Position numbers and translations under genes: made by a program. Positions 7,395 through 40,648 of a stretch of 64,000 nt of DNA are shown in pieces. The notes under the pieces are model-generated. The model saw nothing but the letters and a program-made list of their open reading frames with translations. It had not been told where the DNA came from and searched no databases. Position 1 is the first letter of the stretch; the number at the start of each line of letters is the position of its first letter. Where the stretch lies: assembly GCA_963801365.1 (NCBI GenBank), contig CAWDEZ010000007.1, positions 276,124 through 340,123 on the forward strand, written 5' to 3'. The stretch is from an uncultured Actinomycetota bacterium. Lineage in GTDB: Bacteria; Actinomycetota; Actinomycetes; Mycobacteriales; Mycobacteriaceae.

Positions 7395-7580
7395 ACGGCT
7401 CGGCTGGGAAGACCGACAGCGCCGGACGAGCGCCGCGTGACCAGCGGTGATCGTCGCTGAGAGAACTTGCCCACAAGGCGTCCTGCGACCTCGTCGAGCA
7501 GTTCTCGCTCAGCCCCGTCGGTCCTGTGGGGCCCCTGGGTCGCGGGGCTTCGACCTACATCGACCGCTGACGAGGCTTAG

Positions 7581-9265
7581 CCTCGATTTTGCATGCCTGT
7601 AGGTTTGGGTTGAGGGTTGGCTGCGGATTAGCCTGTGTGATGGGTCTTTTCGGGATGTCGTATGTTTGATGGCCCCGTGTCGCGGGGCGGGGCGGGCTTT
7701 CCAGGGCCGTGGTGGGTTCGTGGTCGTTGGGGGCTGGTGGGTCCGTGGGTCAGGGGAAGGCGGCGCGGATGCGGTGCCAGGCGGTTGCAATCGCGATGGC
7801 CCAACGCCAGCTGGCATCGACGCGTAACCGGAGTTGGCGGGCGCCGCGGGTGATGCGGGCAGCCACGTGCAGCACCCGGTAGCGGAAGGCGGCGATCTCG
7901 CAGCGGGAGATCTCGGGGTGGGCGGTGAATCCGATGAGTTTGGCCCAGGCGACGAGATCGGTTGCAGCCAGGACAATTTCGAGCCAGGCAGTATTGGCGT
8001 GGAATCCGTGGCAGGGCAGGTTGGCCAGTCCGGTCGCCTTGGCTTCGCGGATGCGGTCCTCCACGCGGGCGTGCTGGCGGTGGCGCAGCTCGAGGCCGGC
8101 CAGCTGCCCAGCGATCAAACCGGGGGCTGTGTCGGTGATGAACGCGGTGACCCGCATGCCGTCGGCGTCGGTGAACCGCAGCTGCGCACCGGGGTGGGGG
8201 CGTTCCTTGCGCAGGATCAGCCGGGTGCCGGCAGGCCACGCCGACATGTCGACCAGGTCGGTGGCCTCGGCCACCCACGCCCCGTCGCGGATCTCACCGT
8301 CTGACTCGATCGCCGGGTACCAGGCCTGACCGCGGTTGAGGGTGTCGGCCGCGTCTTGCACCCGGGTGTCGACCGGGTGGCCCAACGAGAACCCGACCCG
8401 GTGAGCTCGGCAGGCCGTGGCGAACGCGTGGGTGGCCCCAGCGGCGTCGGACCGCACCAGCACCTTCGGCGCCGCGGGATCCCGGCCCGGACGCCAGTCC
8501 GGCGGCAGCGACGCCAACGCCTGCTCCAGGACCGTGACGTGGTCGGCCGCGGTGTTGCTGCCCGCGTTGCCGGCCCGCAGCAGCCCGGCCAGCGCCTCGC
8601 CCCCGGCGATCTCCGGACGATCCAAAAACGCCAACAACGGGTGATGCCCGAAGGTCTTCTTCCAGGTCGGCGCCGCGTTCTGCTTGTTGTCGGAGTGGTC
8701 GATGGTCAATGTGGCGTCGATGTCGATATGCAGCCACCCGCCGCGCTTGGGGGCCGCCCCGGCGGCCCACGCCGCCGCCCTGGCCGCCGCGCGGGCAGCG
8801 CGCACCCGCGGCAGATGTATCGCATCGACACGCTGGTCAACCAGCCGCCACATCGTGGTCGTCGACGCCTTCGCCCCGAAAACATGCTCGCGGTCCCCGC
8901 ACCGCTGCCCGACCCCGTCGATACAGTCCGCGCCGTCGGCCACCGCTGCCGCCAGATCCGCGAACACTGCACCCGGCGCATACACCCACGGACCCTGGTA
9001 CGTGTCGGCCAACGCGGCGGTCACCTGCGCCGACAACCCGGTCAAGTCGGCCAACTCGCGCAACAAGCCCATCCCCGCATGCGACACCACGCCGTGCCCG
9101 TCCGCCGACACTTTCACCCGCCGCGCCGACGCGATACTCTTCACCTGCAAAGTGCCTCTCCTGCTTGTGCCGACCGGACCTTAGACAAGTCGATCCTGCA
9201 CTGCGGGACAGGCGCTTTCGCGCATCAACACCCCATCACCGACGAACTCGCACGAAAAATTCAGG
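7581..9265 (-). mobile_element. IS1380-family element, copy 1
   Basis: Ends CCTCGATTTT / AAAAATTCAGG; TTAG duplicated at 7577-7580 and 9266-9269; 1685 bp. Confidence 0.95.
7750..9150 (-). CDS. IS1380 transposase
   Basis: 466 aa with DIDAT, VRSDAAG and RARVEDRIREAK DDE motifs; translation identical to copy 2. Confidence 0.95.
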   Translation of the reverse strand: MQVKSIASARRVKVSADGHGVVSHAGMGLLRELADLTGLSAQVTAALADTYQGPWVYAPGAVFADLAAAVADGADCIDGVGQRCGDREHVFGAKASTTTMWRLVDQRVDAIHLPRVRAARAAARAAAWAAGAAPKRGGWLHIDIDATLTIDHSDNKQNAAPTWKKTFGHHPLLAFLDRPEIAGGEALAGLLRAGNAGSNTAADHVTVLEQALASLPPDWRPGRDPAAPKVLVRSDAAGATHAFATACRAHRVGFSLGHPVDTRVQDAADTLNRGQAWYPAIESDGEIRDGAWVAEATDLVDMSAWPAGTRLILRKERPHPGAQLRFTDADGMRVTAFITDTAPGLIAGQLAGLELRHRQHARVEDRIREAKATGLANLPCHGFHANTAWLEIVLAATDLVAWAKLIGFTAHPEISRCEIAAFRYRVLHVAARITRGARQLRLRVDASWRWAIAIATAWHRIRAAFP

Positions 9266-9362
9266 TTAGTGTGCGTGTTGTACCCGTCCACAGAACAGAT
9301 CACTCCCCGAACGGTTACCCCGGCGACCGCATCGGATAGACCCAGCCTCCAAGCCGATCGCT

Positions 9363-10250
9363 TTACTTCGGTTCGAGGGCAGCAAAGTAGTCGGTTTCAA
9401 CCTTTACGTCTTCCACAACCCGCTCGGTAGTCGTGATGCCGATGGCGTTCTCCTTCAAGAGATCGCACAGCCGGTCACCGTCGATCAGGTCGATGGGCGG
9501 CGCACCGTCGCGCTTTGCTTCCGCTCGGGCATCGCTAGTGAAGGTGCCGGTGGTGATAAGCAGGCCCTTGTCGCCTCGACCCGCCATCGCCCCACGGAAG
9601 TCGCGCACAGCAGAAGGGCCAACGCTGCCCGAATAACGCTTGCACTGAAAGAACACGGGAAACGTCAACAACGAAAGTTGATAGACGCCAAGTCCGTCAA
9701 TGCCGCCGTCACCCGATCGGCCCGTGACTTTCGCGCTAGTAAAACCGGATTCTCGCAAGAGCCGCTGGGCAAGCCGTTCGAAAGCGACCGGTGACAGCGC
9801 GAGGAGCGTGCTCAGCAATTCGTCCTTCCACTTCTCCTCAGCTTCAGCCTCGACCTGGTCAAGTTCGCTGCCGACGTCAGATCCGTCGTCTCCGCTCCGC
9901 TTCTTGCCCCTTTTGCTTGCCTTCTTACGATCCGCCGCGAACGCGGCGCGCAGCGGCTCAAGGCTCTCCTGTGTTGCAACCTGTCCTTCGGGCGTCACCG
10001 ACCAAACTCCCCGCGCGCTATTAGCGAAGAGGCCCATTCCCTTCAGGTAAGTCCGCGCCCACGCCAACCTGTTCTGGACTACCGTCTGCGGCCCGCCGCT
10101 GAGTAGGACGCTCTGCTGCTCGGGCGTGAGCTGCTCTCGTTCGATAACTGCGGCATCTAACTCAGCGATCGAGGCAGAGCCACCTAGCGCGATCGCCGTC
10201 TGCAGCGTCGGCCACAGGAGGTCGGAGTACGCAGGAACCACCACAGCCAT
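9363..10250 (-). CDS. mrr: Mrr-family type IV restriction endonuclease
   Basis: Mrr N-terminal wHTH (NRLAWARTYLKGMG) plus catalytic domain (GDGGIDG...FFQCKRY...GLLITT...IDLIDG). Confidence 0.92.
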   Translation of the reverse strand: MAVVVPAYSDLLWPTLQTAIALGGSASIAELDAAVIEREQLTPEQQSVLLSGGPQTVVQNRLAWARTYLKGMGLFANSARGVWSVTPEGQVATQESLEPLRAAFAADRKKASKRGKKRSGDDGSDVGSELDQVEAEAEEKWKDELLSTLLALSPVAFERLAQRLLRESGFTSAKVTGRSGDGGIDGLGVYQLSLLTFPVFFQCKRYSGSVGPSAVRDFRGAMAGRGDKGLLITTGTFTSDARAEAKRDGAPPIDLIDGDRLCDLLKENAIGITTTERVVEDVKVETDYFAALEPK

Positions 10251-10417
10251 AGGTAGAGCATGTCAAACCATCTTGACGATTCATCAGTGCACCGCGCACC
10301 GGTACCTACCCCGTACCTACGACGCAACCGAACCGCAGGCGAACCGCGACTGAACCGCCGCCGTGTGCCAGCCGCACTCAAACCAGAGGTCTGATCGGTT
10401 TTTGTGTTCGCCCCTAG

Positions 10418-12102
10418 CCTGAATTTTTCGTGCGAGTTCGTCGGTGATGGGGTGTTGATGCGCGAAAGCGCCTGTCCCGCAGTGCAGGATCGACTTGTCT
10501 AAGGTCCGGTCGGCACAAGCAGGAGAGGCACTTTGCAGGTGAAGAGTATCGCGTCGGCGCGGCGGGTGAAAGTGTCGGCGGACGGGCACGGCGTGGTGTC
10601 GCATGCGGGGATGGGCTTGTTGCGCGAGTTGGCCGACTTGACCGGGTTGTCGGCGCAGGTGACCGCCGCGTTGGCCGACACGTACCAGGGTCCGTGGGTG
10701 TATGCGCCGGGTGCAGTGTTCGCGGATCTGGCGGCAGCGGTGGCCGACGGCGCGGACTGTATCGACGGGGTCGGGCAGCGGTGCGGGGACCGCGAGCATG
10801 TTTTCGGGGCGAAGGCGTCGACGACCACGATGTGGCGGCTGGTTGACCAGCGTGTCGATGCGATACATCTGCCGCGGGTGCGCGCTGCCCGCGCGGCGGC
10901 CAGGGCGGCGGCGTGGGCCGCCGGGGCGGCCCCCAAGCGCGGCGGGTGGCTGCATATCGACATCGACGCCACATTGACCATCGACCACTCCGACAACAAG
11001 CAGAACGCGGCGCCGACCTGGAAGAAGACCTTCGGGCATCACCCGTTGTTGGCGTTTTTGGATCGTCCGGAGATCGCCGGGGGCGAGGCGCTGGCCGGGC
11101 TGCTGCGGGCCGGCAACGCGGGCAGCAACACCGCGGCCGACCACGTCACGGTCCTGGAGCAGGCGTTGGCGTCGCTGCCGCCGGACTGGCGTCCGGGCCG
11201 GGATCCCGCGGCGCCGAAGGTGCTGGTGCGGTCCGACGCCGCTGGGGCCACCCACGCGTTCGCCACGGCCTGCCGAGCTCACCGGGTCGGGTTCTCGTTG
11301 GGCCACCCGGTCGACACCCGGGTGCAAGACGCGGCCGACACCCTCAACCGCGGTCAGGCCTGGTACCCGGCGATCGAGTCAGACGGTGAGATCCGCGACG
11401 GGGCGTGGGTGGCCGAGGCCACCGACCTGGTCGACATGTCGGCGTGGCCTGCCGGCACCCGGCTGATCCTGCGCAAGGAACGCCCCCACCCCGGTGCGCA
11501 GCTGCGGTTCACCGACGCCGACGGCATGCGGGTCACCGCGTTCATCACCGACACAGCCCCCGGTTTGATCGCTGGGCAGCTGGCCGGCCTCGAGCTGCGC
11601 CACCGCCAGCACGCCCGCGTGGAGGACCGCATCCGCGAAGCCAAGGCGACCGGACTGGCCAACCTGCCCTGCCACGGATTCCACGCCAATACTGCCTGGC
11701 TCGAAATTGTCCTGGCTGCAACCGATCTCGTCGCCTGGGCCAAACTCATCGGATTCACCGCCCACCCCGAGATCTCCCGCTGCGAGATCGCCGCCTTCCG
11801 CTACCGGGTGCTGCACGTGGCTGCCCGCATCACCCGCGGCGCCCGCCAACTCCGGTTACGCGTCGATGCCAGCTGGCGTTGGGCCATCGCGATTGCAACC
11901 GCCTGGCACCGCATCCGCGCCGCCTTCCCCTGACCCACGGACCCACCAGCCCCCAACGACCACGAACCCACCACGGCCCTGGAAAGCCCGCCCCGCCCCG
12001 CGACACGGGGCCATCAAACATACGACATCCCGAAAAGACCCATCACACAGGCTAATCCGCAGCCAACCCTCAACCCAAACCTACAGGCATGCAAAATCGA
12101 GG
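10418..12102 (+). mobile_element. IS1380-family element, copy 2 (inverted relative to copy 1)
   Basis: Ends CCTGAATTTTT / AAAATCGAGG; CTAG duplicated at 10414-10417 and 12103-12106; 1685 bp. Confidence 0.95.
10533..11933 (+). CDS. IS1380 transposase
   Basis: Same 466-aa translation as 7750-9150. Confidence 0.95.
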   Translation: MQVKSIASARRVKVSADGHGVVSHAGMGLLRELADLTGLSAQVTAALADTYQGPWVYAPGAVFADLAAAVADGADCIDGVGQRCGDREHVFGAKASTTTMWRLVDQRVDAIHLPRVRAARAAARAAAWAAGAAPKRGGWLHIDIDATLTIDHSDNKQNAAPTWKKTFGHHPLLAFLDRPEIAGGEALAGLLRAGNAGSNTAADHVTVLEQALASLPPDWRPGRDPAAPKVLVRSDAAGATHAFATACRAHRVGFSLGHPVDTRVQDAADTLNRGQAWYPAIESDGEIRDGAWVAEATDLVDMSAWPAGTRLILRKERPHPGAQLRFTDADGMRVTAFITDTAPGLIAGQLAGLELRHRQHARVEDRIREAKATGLANLPCHGFHANTAWLEIVLAATDLVAWAKLIGFTAHPEISRCEIAAFRYRVLHVAARITRGARQLRLRVDASWRWAIAIATAWHRIRAAFP

Positions 12103-12153
12103 CTAGGGCCGTCTATCAGGCGATTCCGAACGCTCGTTCCCATCTGTAAACAC

Positions 12154-30178: not shown

Positions 30179-30493
30179 CTACAGCCGGCCCGCTGCGAAG
30201 GTTGCTGCCTGGCTTGTCATTCCGGTGTGCACATACTGGACGTGCGGGCCCATGCTGACGCCTTCGGTGCAAATCGGATCGCCGGGCACACACAAGTCAA
30301 TAGTCTTTGGGAGGTACAGCGCGCCGATGCCGGGCAGCGCACCGGCCCACAATCGCCTCGAGAGTGAGCCTGCCGGCGACGGGTTTCCGAAAACGGCAAC
30401 CGCGGCGACATGATCAGCCACCTCGGGTGGCATCTGCGTGGTGACGACGTCGATTACGGCGGCACCTTGGGAGTACCCGCCGAGCACCATCCT
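30179..30493 (-). pseudogene. Cutinase, 5'-truncated
   Basis: [13 protein letters not shown] nucleophile motif, GNP and [10 protein letters not shown]; nothing cutinase-like upstream of 30494. Confidence 0.88.
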
Positions 30494-32675
30494 GTTCATC
30501 GACGAACTGCACACGCTGGTTGGCGCCGGTGCTGGCGAGAGCGCGATCGACGCCGCGTCGATCCTCAAGCCCAAGCTGGCGCGCGGCGAGCTGCAGACGA
30601 TTGGTGCCACCACGCTCGACGAATACCGCAAGTACATCGAAAAGGATCCCGCACTAGAGCGCCTCATCCAGCCGATTCAGATCGGCGAAATGACCGTCAA
30701 GAACACCATCGAAATGCTCAAGGGTATGCGCGACCGGGATGAAGCGCACCACCGGGTGTCCATCACAGACAGCGCGATCCGCGCGGCGGCGATGCTGGCC
30801 GACCGATACATAAACGACGGGTTCTTGCCGGGAAAGGCCATCGACTTGATCGATGAGGCCGGTGCCCAGATGCAGGTCCGCCGGATGAGCGCACCGCCAG
30901 ACCTCCGCGACTTCGACGATGCGATCGCCGATACCCGAAGTGAGAAGGAGGCCGCGATCGATGCGCAGGACTGGCAGAAGGCGGCCAACCTGCGCGACCG
31001 TGAAAAGCAACTGGTGGCCCAGCGCGGCGAGCGCGAAAAGCGATGGTACTCGGATGATCTCGGTGTCGTGGTCGAGGTGGACGAGGAATGTATTGTCGCG
31101 ATGATCGCCGACGTAACCAACGTTGCCGCGGACGAACTCCGCGCAGCGCTTCCATGGGCGATTCAGCCGGAAGCGTTGCCGGAAACAGACACCGACACCG
31201 AGCACCAATATGTAATGTTGAACGACAAGCCTGTCGATAACGCCGACGATGACATGCTTGGCACGGCAAACATCGTCCAGAGAATCGCATCGATTCTCCA
31301 GGAGTCACGGAATGCGGCGCCCTTTGTCATGGCTATCGACGGCGGATGGGGTGTTGGTAAGAGCACCCTGCTAACGCAGATCGAAGCGCGACTTCCTGGC
31401 GAGCCTGAGGTCGTCACGCTCCAATTCAACGCATGGACAGCCCAGGGCGAAAACGCACTTGAAAGCCTGATCAAATCAGTCCTCCTGAAACTCGACCCAA
31501 ATATCGTGCGGCGCTGGGCGCGCAAAATAGTAAAGCGGCGAGGCTTAGTCGGCCTGGCGCGGATCGGATTCGGTATCGCTGCAAGGTTTCTCGGCGTAAC
31601 ACGACTTGTCGACGCGATGTGGACCCAACTCGAAGTCGACGCACAGGCGCGCAACCAGCTCCGCGAGAACATCCAGGGAATGCTCTCCGAGTGGGTCAAG
31701 CAAGGCGGTAAAACAGCTGGCGGTCGAACGCTTGTCGTGTTCATCGATGACCTCGACCGCTGCCCAGACGATGTCGTCGTCCGCGTATGTGAAGCGGTGA
31801 AGCTCTACCTCGATGCACCGGGACTGATCTTTGTCATCGCCTGCGACCTTGCGGTGCTTGCTCGCGGTGTTGCTGGTCCCGCCCGAGGCGGTGTTGGGGA
31901 AGGGCGGACGTATCTAGAAAAGATCATCCAGGTTGCTTACCGGGTACCTGCGCCGGGTAGCGATGTCGTGCGCGGGCTGATCAAAGGCTACGGCAAACGG
32001 TCTGGCATATCACACCTGCTCGACCCCACTGTGGTCAACATACTTTCCGACGCGACGGGGCGGAATCCTCGGCGAATCAAACGGATCATCAACAGTTTCG
32101 TGTTGGAACATCACCTGGACCCAGCGTGGCGGCGCGCGCCCTTGAACAGCGCTCTGCTCATCACAGCAATCCTTCTCCAGCAACTTAACCCGTCGTTCTA
32201 TGCAGTAGTTGTCGACGAGAATTCTGGGGAAGATCCCATCGGGGATTTCCTGGACTACGCTACCGTCCGCGCTAAGGCGTCGAACCCGCCTCTTGGCGAT
32301 AATGCGTGGTGGTCGGCGGTACGTCGGACATTCAAACAACGCGGCCTACCGGCACCCAGTCCAGTTTCACTCCCGGTGGGCGAAGCTTTACCGCTCGAAG
32401 ACCTCGAAAAGTCGTTATCAGATGAATATCCAGCGCTTGACTACCCGCGCCTCGCGCGCAACGAAGCGTTCGTCGCACGGCTGCGACGTATCGGCGGACT
32501 GAGCACCCGCCAGGCACTTCGCGCGCATCTACTTAGCAGTCCGCTCGGCACCGAAAGGGTCGTTGAATCGGCTAGCTCTGTGGCCGGTATGGCTCCAGTG
32601 GATGAATTCGCATCGACAACCGACGTCGAGTCCCTTATGGACGAGGCGTCCTCATCACTCAGTCATCATCAATGA
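30438..32675 (+). CDS. Fusion of a ClpC-like fragment (NBD1 C-half, lid, UVR/M domain) to a KAP-family P-loop NTPase; 5' end deleted
   Basis: [14 protein letters not shown]...[18 protein letters not shown], then KAP Walker [13 protein letters not shown], Walker [10 protein letters not shown] and YLEKIIQ. Confidence 0.85.
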
Positions 32676-32777: not shown

Positions 32778-35429
32778 GCGTTCAGCTCTGCTCGGGCCTG
32801 GTCGATTTGGTCGTATGCGTAGGTCGCCATCGCGGCGGTGGTCATCGTCTCGCCCTTGCGGGCAAGCGATTCGTAGGTCTGGTCGCCGAGCACGTTGCGG
32901 AGATGGGCGATCGCGGTGGTGATTTCGAGGTACGCCATTTCGGTGAGGGACTGAGCGCGAACCCGGCGATGGTGGCCGCCGGTTCATGGCGTCCGAGCCG
33001 GTCCAAGACCGTGGCGAGGCGAGCCAGTGGGTTGCGCATCGTGGTGGTGTCGCCCGCGTCGTGCATGTTTCGGATGGCCAGACTGATCTGGTCGAACGCG
33101 GACGCCATGTCGCCGTGCGTGGCCTCGAGGCGGGGCAGGTTGGATGCAATTGTGGATTCGATGAAGCGGTTGCCGCTGTCTTGAGCGATCACCAGGCCCC
33201 GGCGCAACGCGTCGAGTGCGCGGGCGGGATCTGTGTCGGCGTACGCGGTGCCGTAGGCGTAGAGCACGAAGGAAAGCACAAACGGGTTCCCCGTTGCCTC
33301 CGCAGCCTCCATCAGGCCATCCGCAACAACCCTGGCCTCCTGTCCCGAACCGGCGAACACAAGCCCCAGAACCAGACTCGCCCGGATCGTCACCGGGGCG
33401 TCGCGGCGGCGGCGCAGCTCGGCGCGGCACACCTCCAGCCACCGTTCGGGCTGCCCGACGAACAAGTAGGCACCTCCAAGCCCGCAGCCGTGCGGCAGCG
33501 CATCGCGGTTCCTGCCCAGAACGAACTGGCCGTCGTCGCAGTATCGAACGGCCTCCTCGACCCGCCCCGCCGTGTAGCACAACGACGCCATCAGGTACAA
33601 AGCGGCAAGCCGGGGATGGTCTATCGCACGGGCGGGCGCGATCAGCTCTTCAACCCAGGCGATCGGCTCATAGTTCTCGATCGCCGCGCCAAGAAACCCG
33701 GCATAGGTGGCGATCGCGGCAGCGGTGTCGAGGTCGCCGTGGTCGGCGGCCCAGCGGAATGCGGTGCGCAAGTTGGCCAGCTCGGTGCTGAACCACGTGT
33801 ACGACTCGCGCTGGCGGGGGCTGTTCCACATGGCCATGATGTCGGATTCGCGGCCAGCGAAGTGGCGGGCATGCGCGGCCCGAACCTCTGTGCGCCGCAC
33901 CGCTCGCCACGAGTTGCTCCTCGGCGAATTGGCGGATCGTCTCCAGCATTGAAAACCGGGTCCGCCCCGAAGACCGGTCCGCGACGAGTAGCGACTTGCG
34001 CACCAGAGCGTCCAGCAGATCGAGGACGGCGTACTCGTCGATGTCATCGAATCCGACTACGGCGCAGGCGCTCTGGAGGTCGAATCCGCCCGCGAACACC
34101 GAACACCTTGCCAGCAGAGACTTTTCGGCGTCATCGAGCAGGTCATAAGACCACGCCACCGCGTGACGCAGCGTGTGGTGGCGTTCCAGTCCGCGCCGCG
34201 AGCCGACCAGCAGCCGGAATCGGTGATCGAGACGATCACGGACCTCACTGGCCGTCATCGACGCCATCCGCGAGGCCGCCAACTCGATCGCCAGTGGTAT
34301 CCCGTCGAGGCGTCGGCAGATTTCCACCACCGCGCCCGCCTCATCAGCTGTGGCCATCGAGAAGCGCGGCGCCACACTCCGGGCGCGTTCGACGAACAGA
34401 TTGACTGCGGCAGAGTCGACTCCCCCGCTGAGATCCAGCGAGGGCACCGGCCACACTTGCTCGTCGGCGCCCCCCAGCCCTTCGCGGCTGGTGGCCACGA
34501 TTCGCACCGTCGCCGAGGCCGCCAGGATGGCTTCGATCAGATCGGCGGCGGCGTCGAGCACGTGCTCGCAGTTGTCGAACACCAACAGCCGGATTCTGCC
34601 CTCCAACGCGGCGGCCACACTCTCGCCCACGCTCTTGCCCGGCTGTTGAGTGATACCCAGCACCGCCGCCACCGCGTCGGGCACCGCCGCCGGATCGGTG
34701 ACCGCCGCCAGTTCGAAAACCCAGACGCCATCGGGAAATTCACCGGTCAGCCGTGCCGCGACTTCGGTGGCCAGGCGGGTCTTGCCGACCCCGCCGACAC
34801 CGGTCAAGGTGACCAGCCGATGTGTTCGCAGCGCGGCTTGCACCTCGACGACGTCGGACTCGCGCCCGATGAAGCTATTGGTTGCAGGCCGCAGGTTGCC
34901 CGAACTCGTATCGAGCGCACGCAGAGGCGGGAACTCGATGGCGCAGGCCGGGCGCCCGCAGCTGAAACACCGTGATCGGGTTCGGCACATCCCGCAGCCG
35001 TCGCCGCCCCAGATCGAGCAGATCAACACCGGTGAGCAGGACCGCCGTCGACTCGGCCACCAGAATCTGACCGCCATGCCCGGCGGCCATCACCCGCGCA
35101 GCACGGTTGAGCACCGCACCGAAGTAGTCCCCGTCGCGCAGTTCGGCCTCACCGGTTGCGATGCCCATCCGCACCGGCAACTCCAAGGCCCGCTGTGCGG
35201 CTACAGCTGCATCGACAGCAGATTTCGGCGACGAGAACGCGGCGCATACCCCGTCACCGGTGTGCTTGAACATGAAGCCGCCGTGCGTCTCGATCGCGGC
35301 GCGCAACACCTCGTCATGTGCGACGAGGGCCGCCCGCATCCCATCCGCGTCGGCCTCCCACCGACGGGTCGAACCCTCGACATCGGTGAACAGAAACGTC
35401 ACCACCCCCGAAGGAGCAGCCGCCGTCAC
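32765..35429 (-). pseudogene. Class III adenylate cyclase - NB-ARC/STAND ATPase - TPR-like protein, three frameshifts
   Basis: FLFTDVEGST, KHTGDG, LNRAAR; Walker A GVGGVGKT; ends DQARAELNAVSK*. Frame breaks near 34940, 33890 and 32945. Confidence 0.9.
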
Positions 35430-38400
35430 GTCATCGCCTCGGCCCACGCCATATGCCCTTCGAAGCCAAGCGATGTGGCCATCGCGCGGTAGCGATCCCG
35501 ATAGTCGCGATACGCGGTCTCGTCGTTGTGAGCTCGTGCCAGTAGCGCGCGCAGGCGCAGTAGGGGGAGTTCGTGTAGGACGAACCCAGGGTCGGTCGGT
35601 ACAGCTGCCAACCTGTCGATCGCGGCCTTGGCTTCCTGCAGGTCGGCGTCGGCACCCCTGCGCAACAGCGCTTCCACGAGAACGGCGGTCGCCGGGCCGC
35701 GAAACACCATTTCGCCCGTGTCGAACAGAAACTCGATATTAGAACGGGCCCCTTGGATCGCATCGTCGATATCGCCAAGCTGAGTCTTCACCTTCGCGGT
35801 GAGGAACTCGACCCTCTCGACCAACCTCTCTGCGTAATGCTGCCGCAGCATGGCATCACGTAATTTGGTGAACTCGTCGATGCTGAGAGCCAGTTGCGGC
35901 GCATCGCGATTGACTAGTGCCATGCCGCGAACGGTCCGGGCAATCAGCAGCGCGAAGTCGTCGCCCGATTGCTCAGCCATCTGCAGCGCGTCAGCGGTCT
36001 GGGCCATGACCGATGGGTCGAATCGCAATGCCCCGTTGAGGGTGGCGAATCCTTTGTACAAGATGACCCCGATATGCGAGGTCGTGTCTCCCGCCTCGCG
36101 GGTCATGTCGATGGCGTGCTCGAGGTCGTCTGTCCAGCCCGCACGTCCAAGACAGCATCGGCCGCCGCCGCGCACCGCGAGGGCAAACGCCAGCGGTGAT
36201 CCGATTATCAGGGCGCCCTTGGTTGGGTCGCCGTCGGCGAGGTCGATGACGCGCTGCGCCAGCCGCAGCGCTTCGGTGACTTCCCCGGCTTGGATTTTGG
36301 CGTTGCTTGCCGCGATGGTCAGTCCGACTGTCAGTTCAGGATTGCCAATTTTCTCGACGAGCGCGGTCAACTCCGAGGCCATGCGCGCCGCCTCGCGGAA
36401 CCGACATTCGAACATATGCGACGTGAGCACCCCAGCCATGCCGATAGCCAACGACACCGGATCGTTAGCGGTAGTGCATAGGTCGTGGAATTGTTCGAAG
36501 CGGTGGTCGGCGATGGTTGCCTGCGTTCTCCACGAGTTCCCGCAAACTAGGGTCCAGGGGGCGATTCGCATCGAGGTCCGGTCGGGATCGTCCTCAGGCA
36601 ACCGTTCCGCAACAGCCCGCGCTCGCTGCCAGCTCAGCTGTGCCGCGCCGATATCGCGGCTTGACGACCATTGTGCTGCCCGCATGTGCCAGCGGTATGC
36701 GGCGCGCAAATCACCGGCGGCCTCGCGGTGCTCGGCAATCAGCGCCGCGTTCTCATCGATGGATGCCGGGTCGCGGGTCTCGATCGCGTCGGCCAGGCGA
36801 CGGTGCAGCTCGGCGCGATCGGATTTGAGCTGTGATTCATAGGCCACTGTGCGAATCAACGGATGGTGAAACACGTACTCCGGTTCACGGGTGAATCGGA
36901 TCTGATCGATGAGCTCGCCCCCGACGAGGTCCTGCAGGGCAGGATCAATCCCCAGCGTTTCCAGTAGGCCCCGGCTGAACCGCGAGCCAATGACCGCCGC
37001 CGCGCTCAAGGTGCGCTTCGCTTTCGGGTCGAGCCGGTCGATCCGTGCGGCGATGGCCGACTGCAAGGTGGCGGGCACACTGACCTCACGCACATCTTCG
37101 CTTGACATGTATGCGCCGGGGCCGCCGCTTAACACACCCCTCTCAGCCAACTCGCGCACAATCTCCTCAGCGAAAAATGGTGTACCGGCTGCCCTTTCAG
37201 TGATCGTCTCGATCAAAGCGGCCACCGAGGGGTCCGAACCGAGCAACTGGGACACCAGGGCGGCAGTCTCGGTATCGCTCAGCGGCGCAAGGGCTACCGT
37301 TTGCGCACCAGTCAACTGGGTCAATGGACCGCGATATTCGGGTCGGTAGGTGAGCAGCATCAGCGAGGGCGTCTGCGCGACCACCGTGAGGAAGTCCGCC
37401 AGCAGCGACTCGCTGACCTCATCAATCCAATGAGCGTCCTCAACGACATAGACCGCTGGGCTTTCGCGGGCCAACGACGCGGCGTTCACCAACGCGGTCA
37501 ACCGCCGCCGCCGCGCATCGGGATCTATTGCCGGTAATGGAGTGTCCGGGTCGGCGATGCCCAGCAGGTCATCAAAGACCATCCAATCCTCGGGGTCCGC
37601 GTCGGGAACCCGGTCGCGCACTTGCTCGCGAGCGATGTGCGCGTCAAGACCCTCGACACCAAGGGCCGCGCGGAGCAGGCGCGCGACCGCATGGAACGGG
37701 ACCTGACTGGTATGGGACTCGCAAAACGCGGTGAACACTTGCACACCACGGCGACCCGCCATCGCAGAAACTTCACGCACGAGACGGCTCTTGCCGATGC
37801 CTGGTGGCCCCACGACCCCTACGACTGCGCCGTGGCCGTCGATCGCGCGGTCCAACAAGGCCTCAACGGCGGACAACTCCCACCGCCGACCGACGAGTTT
37901 CGACTCAGCACGGCTGACAGCGCGATGCCGTTCGCCCATGCCCAACAGCCGCCGGGCCGAGACCGGTTCATCGGCACCCTTGATCCGCACCATCTCCGGC
38001 TCACCAAGCGCCGCTGCGCCATCAACCAGTCGCGCGGTGGACGCGCTGAGCATCACCGCACCCGGCGGTGCGATCGACTCCATCCGCTGAGCCATCCCCA
38101 CCTGCTCACCGATGGCGGTGTAACCCAAAGCACCCGAGCCGATCTCACCAGCGATCACCTGCCCCGAGTTCAGACCGATCCGCAGCCGCAGATCCGCGCC
38201 GTCGCAGCGTTGGACCTCTTCGGCAAGCCGCTTCGCCTCGTCTTGCACACCCAACGCCGCCAGGCAGGCGCGAACGGCGTGGTCCTCCAACGCAACCGGC
38301 GCACCAAACACCGCCATGATGCCGTCGCCGGTGAACTTGTCCACCGTGCCGCCGTAGCGCTGCACCACCGCCGCGCAGCGGTCGGCGAGTTCTGCCATGA

Positions 38401-38626
38401 TCTCGCGCAGCCGCTCCGCACCGACGGCTGCCGCAATGTCCATCGAATGAACAACATCGGCGAACAAGACGGTGACTTGCTTGTACTCCGCCGATCGACT
38501 GGCGTGTGTGAGCGGTGCACCGCACTCGTTACAGAACTTGGAGCTCGGTGGCAGTTCGGTACCGCACGACCCACAGAACAGCCCCGTCCCGGTCCGTCCA
38601 CCGCCACCATCCCCGCTGGGGTCCAC
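35426..38626 (-). CDS. Zinc-ribbon - class III adenylate/guanylate cyclase - AAA/STAND ATPase - helical repeat protein
   Basis: CGSC/CNEC, VLFADVV, DKFTGDG, GPPGIGKS, VVEDAHWID; intact 1066 aa; stop overlaps the start of the next gene. Confidence 0.93.
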   Translation of the reverse strand: MDPSGDGGGGRTGTGLFCGSCGTELPPSSKFCNECGAPLTHASRSAEYKQVTVLFADVVHSMDIAAAVGAERLREIMAELADRCAAVVQRYGGTVDKFTGDGIMAVFGAPVALEDHAVRACLAALGVQDEAKRLAEEVQRCDGADLRLRIGLNSGQVIAGEIGSGALGYTAIGEQVGMAQRMESIAPPGAVMLSASTARLVDGAAALGEPEMVRIKGADEPVSARRLLGMGERHRAVSRAESKLVGRRWELSAVEALLDRAIDGHGAVVGVVGPPGIGKSRLVREVSAMAGRRGVQVFTAFCESHTSQVPFHAVARLLRAALGVEGLDAHIAREQVRDRVPDADPEDWMVFDDLLGIADPDTPLPAIDPDARRRRLTALVNAASLARESPAVYVVEDAHWIDEVSESLLADFLTVVAQTPSLMLLTYRPEYRGPLTQLTGAQTVALAPLSDTETAALVSQLLGSDPSVAALIETITERAAGTPFFAEEIVRELAERGVLSGGPGAYMSSEDVREVSVPATLQSAIAARIDRLDPKAKRTLSAAAVIGSRFSRGLLETLGIDPALQDLVGGELIDQIRFTREPEYVFHHPLIRTVAYESQLKSDRAELHRRLADAIETRDPASIDENAALIAEHREAAGDLRAAYRWHMRAAQWSSSRDIGAAQLSWQRARAVAERLPEDDPDRTSMRIAPWTLVCGNSWRTQATIADHRFEQFHDLCTTANDPVSLAIGMAGVLTSHMFECRFREAARMASELTALVEKIGNPELTVGLTIAASNAKIQAGEVTEALRLAQRVIDLADGDPTKGALIIGSPLAFALAVRGGGRCCLGRAGWTDDLEHAIDMTREAGDTTSHIGVILYKGFATLNGALRFDPSVMAQTADALQMAEQSGDDFALLIARTVRGMALVNRDAPQLALSIDEFTKLRDAMLRQHYAERLVERVEFLTAKVKTQLGDIDDAIQGARSNIEFLFDTGEMVFRGPATAVLVEALLRRGADADLQEAKAAIDRLAAVPTDPGFVLHELPLLRLRALLARAHNDETAYRDYRDRYRAMATSLGFEGHMAWAEAMT

Positions 38627-38689
38627 GTCAGTATCGTTTCACTGCTGGTCAACGATTTATGTCATATCGCCGTGCCATCTCCGACACGA

Positions 38690-38726
38690 AGTTCTGAGAC
38701 CCTCGTATGTCGTCTATTTAGAGACG
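38690..38726 (+). repeat. 37-bp dyad repeat, copy 2
   Basis: AGTTCTGAGACCCTCGTATGTCGTCTATTTAGAGACG. Confidence 0.8.
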
Positions 38727-38932
38727 CCGTAGCCAGCGGATATCCTTGCTTCGGCTGCGCCCCTCCTGGCCCTCGAAGGCCAGCCAGAACGAGATAATTG
38801 CCATCGTGCCCATCCTCGGCGACGACCCCTGGGTACACATACGACTCCCAGAGCTTCACCGGCGAATGGGATCAGTGCACCGAGGCTGAGGCCGGACGGA
38901 AAAACAAAGCAGCTCTTCTGAACGGCGACTCG

Positions 38933-39613
38933 TTACATCGCTTCTAGCTTTGCCACCTGATCGTTGAAGAGCTTCACTAAGGCGTTTGTATCGTTCGGTG
39001 AAATGTCGCCGCCGGGCTTTTGACCGAAGGCCACGGAAACGTAAAGACCACGGCAAAGGCCAATGACGCCAGCGCCGTCAGCTCCTGGGCTGGTAACGCG
39101 CGTTGCGTTAGCCCAACTGGGCAGCCCCGGCAGCGGCAAAGGCGAGACCGTGCCGGTGTGTCCTTGATATTCGATCGTTCCACACTTGCCAAGCAGGCTC
39201 CTGAGGTCTGGCCGCTCTGCGGGCACCACAAGGTACAAACTAAAGAGTTTGCCTTCGTTGTTCGTCGACGTACCAACGGATCTCATCGTCGACCAAGTAA
39301 CGGATCCCATTTGGGTGTGGGCCGGTCCCCAAAAGATCGGCCCACACTCCGGCGGATCAACCGGGTCATTCGGCCCTTGCGTGTCGCTACTTATGCTGGG
39401 TGCCGTAAATTCCATTGCGGGACTGTTGGGGACAGCCGACCGATCAACGAACATCGAACTGGTCACCTGCGTGAACTCCGGTTTCTGCGGCGTTTCATTG
39501 CTCCCCGGCGCTGCGGACTTGCTCGCAGCCGAAGAGCAGGAGACCGTCATCACCACCATGCATACCGCTGCGGTCACTGCCAACAGTCTCGCGTGAGTCG
39601 CACCTACAGCCAC
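38933..39613 (-). CDS. Putative lipoprotein (possible PknH-like sensor fold)
   Basis: Signal peptide ending MTVSC; DPPECGP...KC...C pattern. Confidence 0.65.
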   Translation of the reverse strand: MAVGATHARLLAVTAAVCMVVMTVSCSSAASKSAAPGSNETPQKPEFTQVTSSMFVDRSAVPNSPAMEFTAPSISSDTQGPNDPVDPPECGPIFWGPAHTQMGSVTWSTMRSVGTSTNNEGKLFSLYLVVPAERPDLRSLLGKCGTIEYQGHTGTVSPLPLPGLPSWANATRVTSPGADGAGVIGLCRGLYVSVAFGQKPGGDISPNDTNALVKLFNDQVAKLEAM

Positions 39614-40215
39614 TATGTCTTCCCCCGCCCGAAGGCGGCCAGCTGGAGCCTGGCCCCCTTCTGCAGACAGGTCTTGTCTGGTAGTTGAGTATCGCGTAGT
39701 GGCTGGCTGTATGGCTAGTTGTGGTGCGGACTTGGTTGTCGATTCGGGGCTATCTGGTCAGCGGTCATGGCGAGTATTGCTGGCCACTCCCGGGTCGATC
39801 AGCGGACCCGGAATCTGGTGAGTGACGGCGGGCAGGCCGAGGCTCTTGTTGCCGACCACTCGCGCCGGATCTGCTTGGTGCAGAGCAGAGGTCAGAGGCC
39901 CTTGATGCCCATAGTCATTGAGGGCGTCGAGGGTTTGCTGCTGGTTGCTCATCAGTGGTGTGCCTCGTTCCAACCAGAAACCGACTCGATCCCGCATGAC
40001 CGTCACAGACCCCGGTGCTGGACCTCAACGCCGCGTAGAGGTTTCCCTGGCAGAATCGCTACGCCCCGTTGAAGTTGCCGATGTCGAGTGCTCCCGCTGC
40101 AACGCCGTGTTCGTCGACTAGGGCGCCTACGACAGACATCGGCCTGACGGCAAGTGCTCGAGTCCATCGGCTGTCGGGTTGGTCGTCGCCGCCAAGGTGC
40201 CCTCGGCCACCGAAC

Positions 40216-40648
40216 CTAGACCGCGTCGTGGATCTTGGTCCGATATGCGTCAAATGTGCGTTGTCCGAGCAGCTTCCAGAGTATCCGTGGCGCCACGGGG
40301 ATACCGGAGAGAAACTGCCGTTGCTCGTCGGGAGCGGCATCTTGGAGCGCGAGGCCGAGGAATACGAGGGCCAACTTGTTCTTGGGCAGGAACTCCGCCC
40401 CGCGCGCGACGCAATCCTTCCATTCGTCATTGGTGATGTGCTCGCGGATCAGCGGAAGGATGTCCCGTTCTTCGTTCTCGAGATGCGTATCGACTCTGGC
40501 CGATAGGTCCTCGGTGGCTCCGATCAACTGCGCTGCCAGTTCGGGGTCAGCCGACTTGCCCCAGGGTCTTCGAACGATCTGTACTTTCTCGACTGACTCG
40601 GCGATACCGGCGTGCTCGTCTTCCATCTGCTGGATCTTGAGGTCAGGT
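40216..40648 (-). pseudogene. Hemerythrin-domain protein, 5'-truncated
   Basis: MEDEHAGI...DTHLENEERDILPLIREHIT; fused at its 5' side to the P450 N-half. Confidence 0.78.

Follow-up and report, generated by a model that had tools for sequence, protein, structure and literature searches.

We describe the remnant of a ClpC1-KAP fusion gene at positions 30438..32675 (+) of a 64,000-nucleotide stretch of DNA (hereafter the window; assembly GCA_963801365.1, contig CAWDEZ010000007.1, positions 276,124 to 340,123 of the forward strand) from an uncultured bacterium of the Mycobacteriaceae, together with the family of full-length proteins to which it leads. We are highly confident that this family, here called ClpC-KAP, is a real and conserved fusion, that its ClpC1-derived module has been disarmed and that the copy in the window is a truncated relic. 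The account as a whole, in which the relic stems from a family of single-gene proteins whose ClpC1 mimic would act as a bait coupled to a KAP NTPase, is given a probability of about 0.45. The window copy itself matters mainly as a pointer to this family, in which the region fused to the NTPase can be read as a copy of ClpC1, itself an essential part of a protease and a leading target of tuberculosis drugs, and this yields a testable hypothesis for the trigger, namely something that binds ClpC1.

A ClpC1 fragment joined in frame to a KAP NTPase

The open reading frame (ORF) comprises 745 open codons from a GTG start, with no stop or frameshift inside. Its first 16 codons (30438-30485, +) are a reverse reading of a cutinase gene stump and foreign to the ancestral protein. 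They are followed by a ClpC1-derived fragment of ~213 amino acid residues (aa 17-229; 30486..31124, +), equivalent to ClpC1 residues ~283-494, which keeps the Walker B ILFIDELH (30489-30512, +), the sensor-1 IGATT (30600-30614, +), the lid, the M/UVR coiled coil and the first post-M helix, and from which the N-terminal domain (NTD), Walker A and the pore loop are missing. A family-specific linker of 27 residues (31125..31205, +), conserved among the fusion proteins, different from ClpC1 and modelled as disordered, leads into the KAP P-loop NTPase unit (31206..32102, +), which begins at the family motif Y-x-(L/M)-L-N-D-x-P. Its Walker A (aa 301-310; 31338-31367, +) and Walker B (aa 432-442; 31731-31763, +) both agree with all the invariant columns of a 51-member family alignment. 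The C-terminal ~190 residues (aa 556-745; 32103..32675 including the stop, +), modelled as a helical domain (aa 556 to ~706) and a disordered acidic/serine-rich tail, match no Pfam family, yet they are conserved in the 51 family members.

Profile searches support this layout, with Pfam AAA_lid_9 at aa 87-187 (E 4e-28), UVR at aa 163-193 and KAP_NTPase (PF07693) at aa 278-555 (E 4e-34, 118.6 bits against a cut-off of 20, profile positions 3-287 of 293), and with the NCBIfam Hsp100 models (ClpB, ClpA, ClpK and ClpV) aligning to aa 15-215. A first-pass annotation, made from the letters alone, had proposed a ClpC1-like part, a linker and a KAP NTPase with intact motifs and about 200 unassigned C-terminal residues, and Pfam, NCBIfam and the comparison with ClpC1 recover exactly this arrangement, the C-terminus measuring ~190 residues. 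The two substitutions that it had called at functional sites of the ClpC part are likewise present: the degenerate arginine finger ALERLIQP in place of the ALERRFQP of ClpC1 (aa 72-79; 30651-30674, +) and the altered form of DRFLPDKAID (aa 127-136; 30816-30845, +).

Residues 17-228 share 75-76 % protein identity and 79-80 % DNA identity with the two ClpC1 genes of the same genome. The fragment is thus ClpC1-derived yet not a fresh copy, and a recent duplication of the genome's own clpC1 was rejected as its source, since the DNA identity to either copy is just 79-80 %. The G+C content at third codon positions (GC3) is 0.80 in the ClpC fragment, similar to the resident genes, and 0.63 in the KAP unit.

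Full-length relatives in several actinobacterial genera

A search with the KAP part (aa 240-745) against 5.8 billion proteins retrieved proteins of ~960-1040 aa with Clp_N, AAA, AAA_lid_9, UVR and KAP_NTPase domains, and a ClpC-like N-terminus (Clp_N/AAA/AAA_lid_9/UVR) stands ahead of KAP in 63 of the 120 best relatives. The fusion is carried by at least 60 sequence clusters, and a profile built from 29 full-length members and run against 1.84 billion representatives found ~10 full-span and ~5 NTD-less clusters at 50 % identity. The first-pass annotation had suggested looking for ClpC(UVR)+KAP proteins elsewhere and had considered that the fusion might exist in one strain only; the full-length homologs recovered come from several genera and share a recurrent NTD-D1-M plus KAP architecture. 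Carriers known by name include Mycolicibacterium vulneris (1016 aa, 'hypothetical protein B8W69_00410'), Kribbella with three proteins, Actinocrispum wychmicini and a Streptomyces plasmid, the remainder being metagenomic.

The Streptomyces copy illustrates how automated annotation under-calls this architecture. On the 432-kb linear plasmid NZ_CP108868.1 of Streptomyces sp. NBC_00829, we found an uninterrupted ClpC-KAP ORF of 993 aa (L160, 5986-8967), for which the protein database entry holds only the C-terminal 478 aa, named 'KAP family NTPase' (P0027), and at which the gene table of the plasmid, which is incomplete, lists no gene. The 'stand-alone' Streptomyces KAP members P0027-P0029 are probably the same annotation artefact. 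Loss of the module in such stand-alone genes nested among the fusions was considered and rejected, since at least one of them proved to be an artefact of this kind.

The family is rare. In 200 sampled genomes of the window's genus the KAP part has no close relative, and a sample of 400 genomes of the class gave no match across the junction; the genomes in the latter sample that are flagged as unpublished yielded only ordinary ClpC1 matches, and no conclusion here depends on them. In a scan of genome contigs M. vulneris was the only fusion carrier among the matches listed, which is no gauge of prevalence. The ESM Atlas holds no large Clp_N + KAP cluster, a phage collection returned ClpC-like matches only and no full-length ClpC-KAP relative, and a literature search retrieved no paper joining 'KAP NTPase' with ClpC. 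ClpC-KAP is a real, rare actinobacterial family that has apparently not been described before.

Other arrangements of ClpC-like modules were seen in the same searches. P0134 (1762 aa), P0174 (1375 aa) and others have 8-10 tandem Clp_N-like copies, and many proteins of ~470-530 aa consist of NTD-D1-M only ('half-ClpC'); both may represent further ways of employing ClpC-like modules, unless they are fragments of genes. ESM Atlas clusters (ranks 8 and 10) of ~360-460-aa proteins with AAA + AAA_lid_9 (ClpC-D1-like) are labelled viral (Uroviricota), so phages may encode their own ClpC-D1-like proteins. On a contig of a Methanophagales metagenome-assembled genome (L088, 1620-4435), a ClpC-like gene 47 % identical to ClpC1 residues 2-470 is the divergent neighbour of a KAP NTPase gene of the wider family, an unfused adjacency that may be a coincidence.

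Architecture and predicted structure

Full-length members align with ClpC1 from residue 1 to ~494, which includes the NTD, the N-D1 linker, D1, the lid, M and the first post-M helix. Where the ClpC1 homology ends, a family-specific proline/acidic linker (~35 aa in full-length fusions, modelled as disordered) precedes the KAP unit, which starts Y-x-L-L-N-D-Q-P, so that in all fusion proteins KAP stands in place of the D2 motor and the ClpP-docking part of ClpC1. In an AlphaFold2 model of the M. vulneris protein all domains are confidently folded, with a mean predicted local distance difference test score (pLDDT) of 78, while the linker comes out as disordered and the placement of the domains relative to one another is left undefined (predicted TM score 0.48).

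The AlphaFold2 model of the window KAP unit has a pLDDT of 82; up to model residue ~450 the values exceed 90, and in the tail they fall under 50. Its best fold match in the PDB is the heptameric RADAR ATPase RdrA (8hr8, Foldseek E 2e-5, TM 0.42), followed by ORC/Cdc6, and this modelled likeness suggests that the KAP unit may assemble as a ring; a KAP-profile sequence search of the PDB gave no match. Classical KAP proteins typically insert transmembrane helices between Walker A and Walker B. In the window protein the insert at this position is amphipathic and helical (model helices 103-171, pLDDT 53-64 in part), and its most hydrophobic 19-mer reaches a Kyte-Doolittle value of only 1.52 and contains arginines; there is no convincing transmembrane helix, and the modelled insert is probably soluble or peripheral. 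In the KAP tree, the ClpC-fused members occupy one 32-row clade and three further clades, and a 48-row sister clade has no ClpC module, often carrying a C-terminal receiver domain instead.

A degenerate ClpC module under purifying selection

The motifs were counted in 58 modules and the NTD positions in the 41 modules that bear this domain. The D1 pore-loop YRG is kept in none of the 58 (an aromatic residue in 2), full Walker A in 9, the Walker B DE in 25 and arginine at position 341 in 23. This loss being family-wide, the substitutions noticed in the window copy are family traits and not relic decay, and the proposal of a catalytically dead ClpC part extends to the family. Median identity to ClpC1 is unevenly distributed, with 0.76-0.81 in the NTD, 0.74 in the lid and 0.43 in the pore loop/Walker B region.

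The TEH-type motifs of the NTD repeats are nearly invariant (E31, H32, T105 and H107), at positions that we take to be those of the phospho-arginine pockets of the ClpC NTD. This domain has two phospho-arginine sites (bioRxiv 10.64898/2026.06.30.735635). The stretch 77-92, which lines the drug/adaptor groove, is letter-identical to ClpC1 in many members, and F2, F80 and E89, which are critical to cyclomarin binding (PMC10030653), are kept in 29, 34 and 32 of the 41 modules, respectively.

Pairwise ratios of non-synonymous to synonymous substitution rates (dN/dS), a check that had been proposed for the ClpC segment, are 0.13-0.35 in module segments and 0.07-0.19 in KAP, approximate values as some dS are near saturation, and show purifying selection. 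Neither of the two findings that the first-pass annotation had named as refuting its proposal, a fusion confined to one strain and a ClpC segment free of purifying selection, was obtained. Judged from its sequence, the ClpC module is a structural mimic, not an enzyme or unfoldase.

The module follows the clpC1 of its host

The fusion modules are closer to the ClpC1 of their own lineage than to the modules of other lineages; the M. vulneris fusion shares 80 % identity with the ClpC1 of M. vulneris but 54 % with a Kribbella fusion. At 54 diagnostic columns that separate mycobacterial from Kribbella ClpC1, mycobacterial-type fusions show 29-41 mycobacterial against 1-5 Kribbella states; two of the four Kribbella-clade fusions tested lean to Kribbella (18-21 against 7-10) and the other two are about even (13:13 and 14:11). 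In a module tree with 29 genuine ClpC1 sequences, six modules nest in the Mycobacterium-genus ClpC1 clade, eight further ones lie inside the wider ClpC1 clade and the rest stand outside on long branches, and an approximately unbiased (AU) test rejects a single fusion-module clade (delta lnL 81, p 4e-5). In the KAP tree, by contrast, the mycobacterial-type group has as its sisters, with a support of 100, P0008 and P0009, which carry strongly divergent modules. The trees of module and KAP thus conflict, the modules having been derived anew from the resident clpC1 more than once.

Base composition independently agrees with a re-derivation of the module. A GC3 step from 0.78-0.85 in the module to 0.60-0.63 in KAP occurs only in copies with host-like modules, the window copy included, and is absent from copies with old modules; the resident clpC1 genes have a GC3 of 0.87-0.91. 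No recent gene-conversion tracts were detected between fusion and host clpC1 in M. vulneris or Kribbella, where no segment compared exceeds 90 % nucleotide identity, which places any re-derivation further back in time. On these sequence comparisons, the simplest reading is one old fusion, whose module was overwritten from the resident clpC1 by gene conversion at least twice. Independent or repeated re-fusion was judged less likely, because junction and linker are conserved between the clades with old and with young modules.

Genomic contexts of the full-length genes

Of the ten full-length homolog loci examined, five have links to mobile DNA (an integrative element, an element resembling an actinomycete integrative and conjugative element (AICE), integrase fragments with insertion sequence (IS) elements, or a plasmid), and conflict-type genes (TIR_2, NucC-like PD-(D/E)xK nuclease, GIY-YIG, CHAT) are found at some of these mobile loci and at a sixth locus. 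The M. vulneris copy lies in an integrative-element-like stretch with Prim-Pol/AAA_25, two HTH_17, a TIR_2 protein and a NucC-like PD-(D/E)xK protein. Another copy is in the AICE-like element, with integrase, HTH_17, RepSA and IS elements, further copies stand beside integrase fragments and IS elements, and a different one lies near a CHAT protein. The Streptomyces plasmid copy is flanked by genes for a GIY-YIG nuclease and for a TIGR02391 protein. Two copies, that of M. vulneris and the closest relative of the window gene, have a small serine recombinase as their direct upstream neighbour; such recombinases mark defence loci according to a 2026 study (PMC13552941), in which KAP NTPases fused to unknown regions protect Enterococcus against phages in a Walker-B-dependent manner, with no mention of Clp. 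In addition, the PADLOC models PifA, QatA and PDC-S20 match the NTPase part of the window protein. We consider the context evidence for a role in defence to be suggestive.

The window copy is a truncated relic

The closest full-length relative of the window ORF is on a metagenome contig (L026) and shares 82 % DNA identity with it over 2.1 kb. Blastn similarity begins at window position 30485, equivalent to codon 296 of 1017, and the first 295 codons are lost. On the other side lies the 3' remnant of a cutinase gene (30179..30487, - strand; ~103 codons and a stop), which begins abruptly with VLGGYSQGA, its 5' part being gone; its translation covers positions 79-172 of the 173 of the Pfam Cutinase profile (E 4e-26), and the homology stops at ~30487. 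The stumps of the divergent cutinase (-) and ClpC-KAP (+) genes thus abut at 30485..30490, and the beheading of both at one point is the signature of a single deletion.

This deletion removed the promoter, the start codon, the NTD, the N-D1 linker, Walker A, the pore loop and ~115 residues of the D1 large subdomain. The cut falls within the D1 fold (in the beta-sheet), leaving the lid and M as the sole complete structural units of the ClpC part; the putative bait part is destroyed in this copy. The lost 5' part is absent elsewhere in the genome's own 30-contig assembly (94 % complete), and an inversion or translocation of the missing part is accordingly unsupported. A look for the ancestral locus among 30 relatives turned up no syntenic one. 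The loss of the 5' end and the relic status suspected in the first-pass annotation are borne out by the L026 alignment, the antisense leader and the assembly search, and the anatomy of the locus indicates that the window copy is a 5'-truncated remnant that is probably non-functional.

Weighing against a complete loss of function are the frame, still open over 2.2 kb, and the absence of a non-synonymous excess on the window branch (67 non-synonymous and 88 synonymous changes, against 84 and 94 in the lineage of the intact L026 homolog; Fisher p 0.5). This would be explained by a recent deletion, the reading that we favour, or by constraint that continues to act on the remnant. The window copy could instead be alive, if a shortened protein (partial D1, lid, M and KAP) or a KAP-only product, for example from Met258, were made and useful; the 745 codons open without frameshift, the unrelaxed constraint relative to the intact homolog, the intact KAP motifs and the existence of a sister clade of the same KAP family that has no ClpC module all speak for this. 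We regard it as unlikely, since the gene has lost its native promoter and start codon and now starts inside antisense cutinase sequence, the D1 beta-sheet is cut whereas natural NTD-less forms retain the whole of D1, neighbouring genes are broken as well, and an open frame with unchanged substitution counts is equally expected after a recent deletion.

Proposed role of ClpC-KAP and alternatives

We hypothesize that the disarmed ClpC1 mimic would be a bait for whatever attacks or hijacks ClpC1. The trigger would most likely be a phage or mobile-element protein, the alternative being a ClpC1-directed natural product. Engagement of the bait would free the KAP NTPase or drive its assembly into an RdrA-like ring, and this ring would in turn execute or signal defence. 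An anti-phage bait role of ClpC-KAP is plausible on the present comparisons. In its most specific form, which we put forward tentatively, ClpC-KAP would be a bacterial 'integrated decoy', a single-protein receptor whose ClpC1 bait would be kept like the true target by recurrent gene conversion from the resident clpC1, and in which seizure of the bait by a protein of a phage or mobile element, or by a toxin directed at ClpC1, would set off a ring-forming KAP NTPase; were this true, ClpC1 would be a recurrent target of actinophage takeover.

Several observations weigh against this account. Every functional step of the bait model is inferred. A well-supported NTD-less clade (~17 members, ~820 aa) starts at the N-D1 linker and keeps the whole of D1, so the drug/adaptor groove of the NTD cannot be the universal bait, which argues that D1, the lid and M, beyond the NTD groove, carry an essential function. 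The module tree is a quick tree complemented by the AU test, not a careful maximum-likelihood search, and the module may follow the host gene simply as a neutral consequence of gene conversion driven by homology. Two of the homologs are among ordinary metabolic genes, no conserved partner gene or recognisable effector domain was found across the homolog loci examined, and PADLOC recognised one of the ten neighbouring proteins tested. In a literature search on 'mycobacteriophage' and 'ClpC1', none of the titles and abstracts listed reports a phage protein directed at ClpC1.

The ClpC1 look-alike could be the effector instead of the bait. After activation of KAP by some other signal, the dead module would co-assemble with ClpC1 hexamers or cap them and, as a dominant negative, block ClpC1-ClpP1P2 proteolysis and arrest the infected cell. 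The module is N-terminal, the usual effector position in NTPase-centred conflict proteins such as STAND and KAP; co-assembly requires a match to the host ClpC1, which fits the observed host-tracking; loss of the pore loop, Walker A and the arginine finger is what is expected of a poison subunit; and the NTD is dispensable in one subclade while D1, lid and M are always kept. However, conservation is lowest in the D1 core, through which the subunits would touch one another (median identity 0.43-0.56, residues 236-345), and the NTD, needless for a pure ring poison, is strongly conserved where present, so that we consider this effector role unlikely.

Improbable, in our view, is a sensor or sponge for ClpC1-directed natural products (peptides of the cyclomarin, rufomycin and ecumicin type) from competing actinomycetes, an elaboration of the ClpC2 principle with no role against phages. 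It would account for the retention of F2, F80 and E89 in 29-34 of the 41 modules and for the stretch 77-92, often identical to that of ClpC1; ClpC2 offers a precedent for drug binding with protection (PMC10030653), and the hosts are soil actinomycetes. Members of the NTD-less subclade, however, cannot bind through the known site, the NTPase would be superfluous for a sponge, and rare, patchy, mobile-linked copies with KAP matches to defence models fit a conflict with phages or mobile elements better.

Still harder to sustain is a housekeeping or regulatory role in proteostasis, for instance as a ClpC1-like receptor for phospho-arginine-tagged or adaptor-bound proteins coupled to the KAP NTPase. 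The nearly invariant TEH-type motifs of both NTD repeats and the position of some loci among metabolic or regulatory genes would agree with it, but 400 sampled genomes of the class yielded no fusion and 200 of the genus no close KAP relative, and the fusion's frequent residence on plasmids or integrative elements is unlikely for a housekeeping gene. Finally, an accidental in-frame joining of unrelated gene debris in this one strain, conceivable at a locus that holds a cutinase stump, antisense leader codons and a frameshifted neighbour, is rejected as having a negligible probability, as dozens of independent full-length genes of several genera, evolving under purifying selection, share the same ClpC-to-KAP junction and linker.

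Surroundings of the relic and the own genome

The neighbours of the window ORF are DUF4189, the cutinase stump, a STAND-TPR gene and a cyclase-AAA_16 gene. The STAND NTPase gene (32842..35089, - strand; NB-ARC/nSTAND1 and TPR in Pfam) is separate from the fusion protein and split over two overlapping frames; its open frame of 473 aa compares with ~890 aa in intact paralogs and orthologs, and from its sequence it is probably frameshifted, so the neighbourhood holds further decayed genes. This STAND family is multicopy in the window's genus, with nine matches in the own genome, several of them also shortened. Two genes from the relic, at 35426-38638 (- strand), there is a 1070-aa protein with a zinc ribbon, an adenylate/guanylate cyclase domain and AAA_16; the family member P0013 is flanked by similar cyclase-AAA_16-HTH_77 genes. 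The 3' end of P0013, which is ~130 aa shorter than its relatives, overlaps an adjacent DDE transposase gene by ~80 nucleotides.

Elsewhere in the window, positions 38600-40600 have a G+C content of 0.58-0.62, below that of the surroundings, and contain no long ORF with high GC3. Positions 7578-9269 and 10414-12105 form the 1692-bp arms of a 100 % complementary inverted repeat, 1144 bp apart; each arm encodes a 477-aa DDE_Tnp_1_4 transposase, the two being identical IS copies in inverted orientation, and the pair (7578-12105) is possibly a composite transposon or an invertible segment.

Mycobacteria normally carry one ClpC1 gene. The own genome has two full-length ones, G000:C6:584889-587438 (L002) and G000:C15:15430-17970 (L003), 94 % mutually identical, and the pair reflects either a true paralog or sequence from another mycobacterium that entered the assembly (estimated contamination 2.9 %). 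A separate ClpC2-like ORF is also present.

Comparison with known systems

ClpC-KAP is homologous to ClpC1 in NTD, D1, lid and M, with an identity that reaches 84 % among full-length members and is 76 % for the window fragment. It differs in having neither the D2 motor nor the ClpP-docking part, the homology ending at ~residue 494, and in the loss of the pore-loop tyrosine in all members and of Walker A and the arginine finger in most. The Hsp100 Clp_N double repeat is present in 41 full-length relatives, absent from the ~17-member subclade and deleted in the window copy.

ClpC2 is a ligand-sensing repressor and antibiotic sponge, which binds ClpC1-directed drugs and protects the cell (PMC10030653; bioRxiv 10.64898/2026.06.30.735635). 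In both ClpC2 and ClpC-KAP a domain like the ClpC1 NTD is reused outside the protease, in ClpC2 for ligand binding and sensing, and ClpC-KAP keeps the cyclomarin-contact residues. ClpC2 consists only of an NTD homolog (~40 % identity) and a dimerising DNA-binding part, whereas ClpC-KAP retains the whole NTD-D1-M half at 60-84 % identity, joined to an NTPase. The first-pass annotation had invoked ClpC2 and ClpC3 as decoys; the 'sponge' function of ClpC2 is on record, and a 'ClpC3' was not found in the same article (PMC10030653).

With the KAP defence proteins of the PifA and EF_KAP type, ClpC-KAP shares the NTPase family PF07693 (PADLOC PifA, 6e-32 over the NTPase), the single-gene design in which the NTPase is fused to an otherwise unrelated region and, in two copies, the adjacent small serine recombinase reported for such loci (PMC13552941). 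Its fused region is, however, N-terminal and a recognisable copy of a host housekeeping protein, in contrast to the unknown C-terminal domain of those proteins, and no convincing transmembrane helix is predicted in ClpC-KAP. To PifA itself, responsible for T7 exclusion by the F plasmid, only the NTPase part aligns (profile positions 5-262 of 720). Among solved structures the KAP unit is closest to RADAR RdrA, with a likeness confined to the NTPase fold and 13-14 % sequence identity, and there is no RdrB adenosine deaminase at the window or homolog loci. The Qat system is also distinct, since the window protein scores 120.6 bits with NCBIfam QatA against a cut-off of 600 and no QueC- or TatD-type genes are present at any homolog locus examined.

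In plants, integrated decoys such as WRKY or HMA domains are built into nucleotide-binding leucine-rich repeat receptors (NLRs). These belong to another kingdom and another NTPase class, and the bait role of ClpC-KAP is a proposed one, but the concept is shared: a disarmed copy of a host target, joined to an immune-type NTPase, goes on resembling the real target. If the bait role is true, ClpC-KAP would be a clear case of decoy-based immune sensing in bacteria and a pointer to the phage or natural-product factors that act on ClpC1.

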